Below are positions 22,637 through 22,813 of a stretch of DNA of 40,339 bases, in pieces (within the stretch, counting starts at the first letter, position 1; the number at the start of each line of letters is the position of its first letter). A model generated the notes under the pieces. It was not told where the DNA came from, made no database searches, and saw only the letters and a list, made by a program, of their open reading frames with translations. This stretch comes from Escherichia coli. GTDB taxonomy: Bacteria; Pseudomonadota; Gammaproteobacteria; Enterobacterales; Enterobacteriaceae. The stretch is from assembly GCF_003334815.1 (NCBI RefSeq), contig NZ_QOWO01000034.1. One strand, written 5' to 3'. The translations under genes were made by a program, and so were the position numbers.

Positions 22637-22813
22637 AGCGGGATATCTGTCGAACTCTGTAGCAAGGAAGGTAACAATAACGCTACATTTGCTGGGGTGC
22701 AAATCGGTCTGTTGAAGAGTGAGCGGTGCTTTATCCTGCAACGCTGATTAGGGCTGACATTTTATCCTGGTTGGCGGCTTCCCGAGGTACTGACGAACGG
22801 GAAGCCGGAAAAG

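Follow-up and report, generated by a model that had tools for sequence, protein, structure and literature searches.

Locus organisation

The window analysed here is a stretch of 40,339 nucleotides of Escherichia coli DNA. Apart from 12 mismatched positions along its whole length, it equals the reverse complement of positions 3722002-3762340 in the E. coli K-12 strain MG1655. The genes malS (for an amylase) and avtA (for the alanine-valine transaminase) are both encoded on the minus strand, and the opposite strand is without annotation. They are separated by a spacer of 177 nt that carries no annotated feature in the MG1655 record. Within this spacer, a hairpin directly 3' of malS is followed by a C-rich tract, two copies of a short conserved motif and a putative avtA promoter (Table 1). 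The malS stop codon itself varies within the species: TAA is found in the window and in K-12, and TGA in E. coli UPEC132, E57, IrN and 327_BP0021.

Table 1. Features of the malS-avtA region, listed in the direction of transcription (window coordinates)
Feature	Window position	Strand	MG1655 position	Basis or remark
malS ORF	22814-24844	minus	3737497-3739527	
malS stop codon	22814-22816	minus		TAA
Stop-to-stem spacer	22808-22813	minus		CUUUUC, 6 nt, no A-tract
Hairpin	22775-22807	minus		Sequence, folding, covariation; single-copy per genome
Hairpin 5' arm, CGGCUUCCCG	22807-22798	minus		
Hairpin loop, 13 nt	22797-22785	minus		
Hairpin 3' arm, CGGGAAGCCG	22784-22775	minus		
C-rich, G-poor, largely unstructured tract; candidate rut-like Rho-loading region (presumed role)	22695-22774	minus		Base counts, centroid fold
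CAGGATAAA motif, copy 1	22761-22769	minus		Alignment; conserved across genera as CAGAATAAA
CAGGATAAA motif, copy 2	22730-22738	minus		Alignment; 31 nt downstream of copy 1, conserved as CAGCATAAA
Putative avtA promoter: TTGCAC (22702-22697), 17-nt spacer, TATTGT (22679-22674)	22674-22702	minus		Alignment; predicted
avtA start codon	22634-22636	minus		
avtA	21383-22636	minus	3739705-3740958	

Structure of the hairpin

On the plus strand, positions 22775-22807 read cggcttccc-gaggtactgacgaac-gggaagccg. A preliminary description of this DNA had recorded a perfect 9-bp stem with a 15-nt loop, starting 7 nt after the malS stop. The position, the perfection of the stem and its start at the seventh nucleotide past the stop were confirmed, but the stem comprises 10 bp and the loop 13 nt, since G22784 and C22798 also pair. 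Along the malS strand, the RNA thus has the order UAA-CUUUUC-CGGCUUCCCG-(13 nt)-CGGGAAGCCG-CCAACCAGGAUAAAA. Eight of the ten pairs are G-C, and the folded RNA has a dG of -19.4 kcal/mol (z = -3.0), a stability equalled by 1 of 200 shuffled sequences. In the centroid fold of the entire malS-avtA spacer, the hairpin is likewise the dominant element. A long-range pairing between the 3' coding end of malS and the avtA leader, present in one minimum free energy fold, was dropped, as its z was only -1.7 and the centroid did not contain it.

The flanks of the stem lack the sequence tracts of a canonical terminator. The sequence 5' of the hairpin is GUAACUUUUC, with no A-tract, and the plus strand beyond the hairpin reads GAAAAG, with a T-run absent on either strand. 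The preliminary description had already stated that no T-run follows the hairpin, and this is borne out by the eight nucleotides past the stem on the malS strand (CCAACCAG), which contain no T (0/8), and by a consensus scan of 22400-23000, in which neither terminators nor sigma-70 promoters were detected. Rfam covariance models gave 0 matches at E <= 10 on both strands of 22300-23200.

Dinucleotide shuffling of the 40 kb predicts 0.9 perfect inverted repeats of at least 10 bp with loops of 3-20 nt per window, and 0.27 GC-rich ones. A single repeat of this kind is therefore unremarkable in a window of 40 kb. The malS hairpin is nonetheless not regarded as a chance occurrence, because of its place, 7 nt past a stop codon, and because its conservation is accompanied by covariation.

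Conservation and covariation

Scanning one genome per species yielded 80 Enterobacterales malS loci, in most of which avtA is the next gene. A single hairpin with a dG of <= -12 was found within 20 nt of the malS stop in 69 of these 80 loci. Its 5' arm differs between lineages, namely GGCUUCCCG in Escherichia, GGCUUCUCG in the Citrobacter freundii group, GACGUCCCG in C. amalonaticus, GCUACCGG in Salmonella, GGCUCCCC in Klebsiella and Raoultella, CGUCCCC in Lelliottia and GGCAUCCCU in one further Enterobacteriaceae genome, and is matched by a complementary 3' arm in every one of them. The spacing of the arms varies from 3 to 13 nt across the orthologs, and in sister Escherichia clades extra pairs close the loop.

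Two alignments were used to evaluate the helix. The first was an unfitted MAFFT alignment that comprised 17 sequences from Escherichia and Citrobacter; in it, the helix derived from K-12 is paired in 91.8% of cells, compared with 29-52% when the partner is slid by 1-3 columns. In the same alignment, double (compensatory) changes occur at four of the ten pairs, and the covariation score was reached by 0 of 500 shuffles. A covariance model built from these 17 sequences served to align 24 sense-strand sequences at genus or species level. This second alignment contains 21 distinct arm pairs, and five of the base pairs occur in two to three Watson-Crick types, including UA/GC/AU and CG/GC/UA swaps. 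Pairing is seen in 165 of 167 cells of the seven interior pairs (13-79 to 19-73), a percentage that is generous because the alignment was fitted to the structure. The covariance model finds the hairpin at the malS stop of Salmonella (33 bits, E ~1e-5) and Lelliottia (E ~0.006), and detects it weakly in further genera, Raoultella and Klebsiella among them. RNAalifold returned no structure from the MAFFT alignment with C. sedlakii, C. amalonaticus ku-bf3 and Salmonella, because the 3' arms of these sequences are misaligned or register-shifted. This comparative evidence speaks strongly against chance and neutrality, and against a DNA palindrome bound by a protein, whose sequence and spacing would be conserved; the malS hairpin is kept by selection as a structure and not as a sequence.

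Variation within E. coli is in keeping with the same pattern. When complete E. coli genomes were searched with the spacer or with a 45-nt probe for the hairpin, either query matched a single chromosomal site in 5,424 of 5,426 genomes, and none on plasmids. Among the E. coli copies, 4,454 are identical and 969 have one base difference. In the variants sampled, the nine outer pairs are always unchanged, and the differences fall in the loop, in the innermost pair or on the base directly past the stem. A comparison of Escherichia clades shows an intact stem beside a loop and 60 downstream nucleotides with many substitutions. An origin as a copy of a REP, MITE or BIME element was ruled out, as the hairpin is single-copy in E. 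coli genomes and not dispersed.

The malS sense RNA is taken as the functional strand from the gene context, and a test based on wobble pairs is only suggestive in this respect. At the interior pairs of the structure-fitted 24-sequence alignment, 6 G-U cells were counted against 1 A-C cell, which leans towards the sense strand; over all ten pairs of the unfitted 17-sequence alignment, the numbers are 7 wobbles and 8 A-C. The G-U wobbles include one interior position in five Citrobacter sequences, where the same bases would be A-C mismatches in DNA or in an antisense RNA. When 60-nt windows were folded on both strands, the antisense strand was slightly favoured (52/80), probably because it is G-rich and forms more G-U pairs.

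REP-like substitutes in other genera

The slot after malS is filled differently in some genera. In Enterobacter, Lelliottia and Buttiauxella, it is occupied by dispersed CCTCTCC-N(3-9)-GGAGAGG palindromes, located ~2-75 nt past the malS stop (nine loci). B. izardii carries up to five of these in tandem, and Buttiauxella agrestis contains a long REP-like GCCGGATAAGCG palindrome instead. Where dispersed palindromes occupy the slot, the malS-avtA spacer is widened to 190-347 nt. Palindromes of the CCTCTCC/GGAGAGG type were also found farther out, at +1408 to +1513 in Pseudenterobacter timonensis and at +2033 in one other locus. The malS-avtA spacer of P. timonensis measures 1,688 nt, compared with ~175 nt elsewhere, pointing to an insertion that separates malS from avtA. 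An example of a REP element acting as an mRNA 3' stabiliser is the one of malE-malF.

The avtA promoter region and neighbouring hairpins

The remainder of the spacer leads up to avtA. The block GAUUUGCAC-N17-UAUUGU, which contains the putative avtA promoter, is the best-conserved part of the spacer, and its -10 element reads TATGGT in other genera. The consensus scan gave no match for this putative promoter. In Escherichia, an ATTTGC...GCAAAT inverted repeat overlaps the putative -35 element. The two CAGGATAAA boxes are kept while the surrounding spacer diverges, and may represent a site for a regulator or a UP-like site for avtA. The hairpin is situated ~70 nt before the conserved putative -35 element. 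It thus lies within the avtA upstream region, as had been noted before, and no demonstrated regulatory meaning attaches to this position.

A comparable hairpin follows avtA. It has the sequence UUCCGGCGUU-gaga-AACGCCGGAA (21239-21262, minus strand), with a perfect stem of 10 bp, a 4-nt loop and no U-tract, and it lies at a distance of 7 nt (MG1655 3741102 to 3741109) from the stop codon of ysaA, a convergent gene. The available part of the published TRS table assigns avtA a 'distant primary' 3' terminus at MG1655 3741106 (window 21235), 4 nt past this stem, which lends experimental support to this second hairpin of the kind; hairpin and terminus together span MG1655 3741079-3741106. Between this avtA/ysaA hairpin and the stop codon of avtA, the minus strand carries two REP-like palindromes, gcctgatgcgctacgcttatcaggcctac and ggccggataaggcgtttacgccgcatctggc, at ~21290-21375.

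Elsewhere in the window, GC-rich hairpins with few or no T are located within 2-8 nt of the stops of sgbE, xylB, wecH/yiaA and aldB. The one after sgbE reads GCCGGGGC-ttcatc-GCCCCGGC, followed by ACTACGAA. Canonical T-tailed terminators are found after glyS, xylA, xylH, bax and yiaY. The malS hairpin is locally ordinary, because U-less hairpins also end sgbE, xylB, wecH, aldB and avtA, and it represents a widespread type of element that has been described before.

Proposed role in malS 3'-end formation

Hundreds of E. coli 3' ends were mapped by Dar and Sorek (2018), who found that Rho-dependent transcripts end precisely just past stable stem-loops. These stem-loops have the size and energy of terminator hairpins, are devoid of a U-tail and of an upstream A-tract, and are followed by a sequence with more C than G. 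The diffuse tails generated by Rho are trimmed back to the stem-loops by PNPase and RNase II, and REP elements constitute about a quarter of the protective stem-loops on Rho-dependent transcripts (Dar and Sorek, 2018). A later preprint describes Rho-dependent 3'-end stem-loops as conserved across species.

The sequence downstream of the malS hairpin has a corresponding composition. Its 80 nt contain 26 C and 14 G, a difference (C-G) of +12 that falls into the top 4% of 80-nt windows, and the centroid fold shows little structure there. In the orthologs, the downstream 80 nt have a median of 23 C and 12 G, and C exceeds G in 60 of 69 loci. The bias is modest in E. coli and not specific, and might instead stem from a region ahead of the avtA promoter that is rich in A/T and C.

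The preferred explanation, to which a probability of roughly 0.55 is assigned, is that the hairpin is the 3'-terminal protective stem-loop of a malS mRNA that is ended by Rho further downstream and trimmed by exonucleases. RNA polymerase would transcribe through the hairpin, because without a U-tract it cannot release the transcript. Transcription would then end diffusely downstream, most likely by Rho, which would load on the untranslated stretch before avtA that is rich in C and poor in G. PNPase and RNase II would trim the resulting tail until they stall at the foot of the 10-bp GC stem, leaving a defined and protected 3' end of the malS mRNA ~40 nt past the stop codon. In this way malS, a unit induced by maltose, would be kept apart from avtA with its separate, conserved putative promoter. 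That Rho is involved, that exonucleases are blocked and where the mature malS mRNA ends are inferences. The preliminary description had proposed an RNA 3' stability element or RNase-protection structure; this remains the best fit to the covariation, the REP-like substitutes, the C>G tract and the features of the class, but is incomplete because the link to Rho was omitted. The distance from the hairpin to the avtA start, only ~138 nt, is tight for Rho to load and release the transcript before avtA is translated, and this counts against the proposal, as do the weakness of the strand test and the 4-5 T that follow the stem in some genera.

The expression of malS is MalT-dependent. The accessible part of the TRS termini table lists the neighbouring genes bax and avtA and contains no entry for malS 3' ends, and the supplements of Adams et al. 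and of TERMITe gave no match to malS, avtA or nearby coordinates. Full-text searches of the literature, with several key supplements out of reach, found no published malS 3'-end, Rho-dependence or bicyclomycin data and no described malS terminator. The absence of malS termini is plausibly due to poor expression of malS in the media used, as the gene may be expressed too weakly when maltose is missing, and is uninformative rather than contrary.

Alternative explanations

Weak or factor-assisted termination or pausing, maybe with NusA or NusG, could also end malS transcription and insulate avtA without Rho. The GC-rich stem directly after malS fits such a site, and so does a group of homologous hairpins that are followed by 4-6 T, in Klebsiella (CCUUUUCAG), K. 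indica, Lelliottia, Pluralibacter and one MAG (for example GGGGAGCCUUUUCAG). These suggest an ancestral or lineage-specific intrinsic terminator, and the T-tailed forms of Klebsiella, K. indica, Lelliottia and Pluralibacter may act as weak terminators. In E. coli, however, intrinsic termination needs a U-tract for transcript release, and the E. coli malS hairpin, having none, fails a defining feature of intrinsic terminators. The orthologs point in the same direction, as 48 of the 69 hairpin-bearing loci have at most two T in the 8 nt past the stem and only 4 of 69 have five or more; in E. coli, other Escherichia clades, Citrobacter and Salmonella, the eight bases past the stem contain 0-4 T. 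The earlier judgement that the hairpin is not an intrinsic terminator thus holds for E. coli, where the absence of a U-tract coincides with a 13-nt loop and the lack of a match in the terminator scan. A terminator or pause site is for these reasons considered unlikely, although it deserves some weight.

Protection of the malS mRNA could also be achieved on a processed transcript. If malS and avtA were read through, an endonuclease such as RNase E could cut the spacer and the hairpin would protect the malS fragment, again without Rho. The structural evidence from covariation serves this reading equally, the short spacer of 177 nt with a gene on the same strand downstream makes read-through plausible, and REP elements do such a job elsewhere in the mal regulon, at malE-malF. 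However, avtA has a strongly conserved putative promoter block of its own, the genome record gives malS and avtA as separate features (transcription units are not stated), and the C>G tract is left unexplained, so that processing of a read-through transcript is distinctly improbable. Still less credit is given to a neutral relic, that is, a decayed terminator or chance palindrome persisting by descent. One inverted repeat of 10 bp is indeed not rare in 40 kb, and expression or 3'-end data for malS were not found in the literature and supplements searched, but nine stem pairs stay intact among Escherichia clades whose flanking spacers have become very different. Compensatory double substitutions and the independent replacement by other hairpins or REP elements at the same slot, in more than 10 genera, are likewise difficult to reconcile with neutrality. 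Hardly any likelihood is left for an element acting on the avtA upstream region at the DNA level, either a palindromic operator for an avtA regulator or a cruciform. A perfect inverted repeat at this distance from the putative -35 element would suit it, and folding of whole windows does not favour the sense RNA. Operators conserve sequence, yet here 21 arm variants keep complementarity; the interior wobbles of Citrobacter, the variable arm spacing of 3-13 nt and the replacement of the hairpin by unrelated REP-like palindromes in Enterobacter also speak against it.

A more elaborate reading is conceivable, in which the hairpin and the C-rich spacer form a conditional insulator and not a passive end-cap. 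Once maltodextrins induce malS, regulated read-through or Rho termination in the region of the avtA promoter would then couple to avtA expression or interfere with it, with the two CAGGATAAA boxes involved. This idea is highly speculative and is held with very little confidence.

Significance

If the proposed role is correct, the mature malS mRNA probably ends near MG1655 3739566-3739570 (window 22775 corresponds to 3739566). Furthermore, the hairpin adds a covarying example to the U-less 3' stem-loops, a class that standard terminator predictors miss. One slot has three fillings depending on the genus, namely a unique hairpin, a T-tailed hairpin or a REP element, which indicates that structure and not sequence is required. 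Beyond annotation, the importance of the finding is small, and no new question is opened by it.

Comparison with known systems

With intrinsic terminators, the malS hairpin shares a GC-rich stem-loop a few nucleotides past the stop codon, and the homologues of Klebsiella, Lelliottia and Pluralibacter even have short T-runs. It differs from them in E. coli by the absence of U in the eight nucleotides past the stem, by the size of its loop and by failing the consensus scan. The REP and BIME stabilisers resemble it in the type of location and in the presumed job, and REP-like palindromes fill the homologous slot in Enterobacter and Buttiauxella. Unlike these repeated elements, the malS hairpin occurs at one place per genome, and it bears no resemblance to the REP elements after avtA.

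The hairpin 3' of avtA is the nearest counterpart, as it is also a perfect 10-bp stem without a U-tract, placed after a gene on the same strand, and has a published 3' terminus 4 nt past it. The two are distinguished by their sequences, and the avtA hairpin has a loop of only 4 nt, is common to the convergent ysaA and is preceded by REP elements.

In experimental terms, the class of Dar and Sorek is defined by a 3' end mapped at the stem, by sensitivity to bicyclomycin and by trimming through PNPase and RNase II, and the malS hairpin is a candidate member by its sequence features; its loop of 13 nt looks large. It agrees with the members of this class in being stable, in lying directly 3' of a gene, in having neither a U-tail nor an A-tract, in being followed by a sequence with more C than G, and in its conservation across species.
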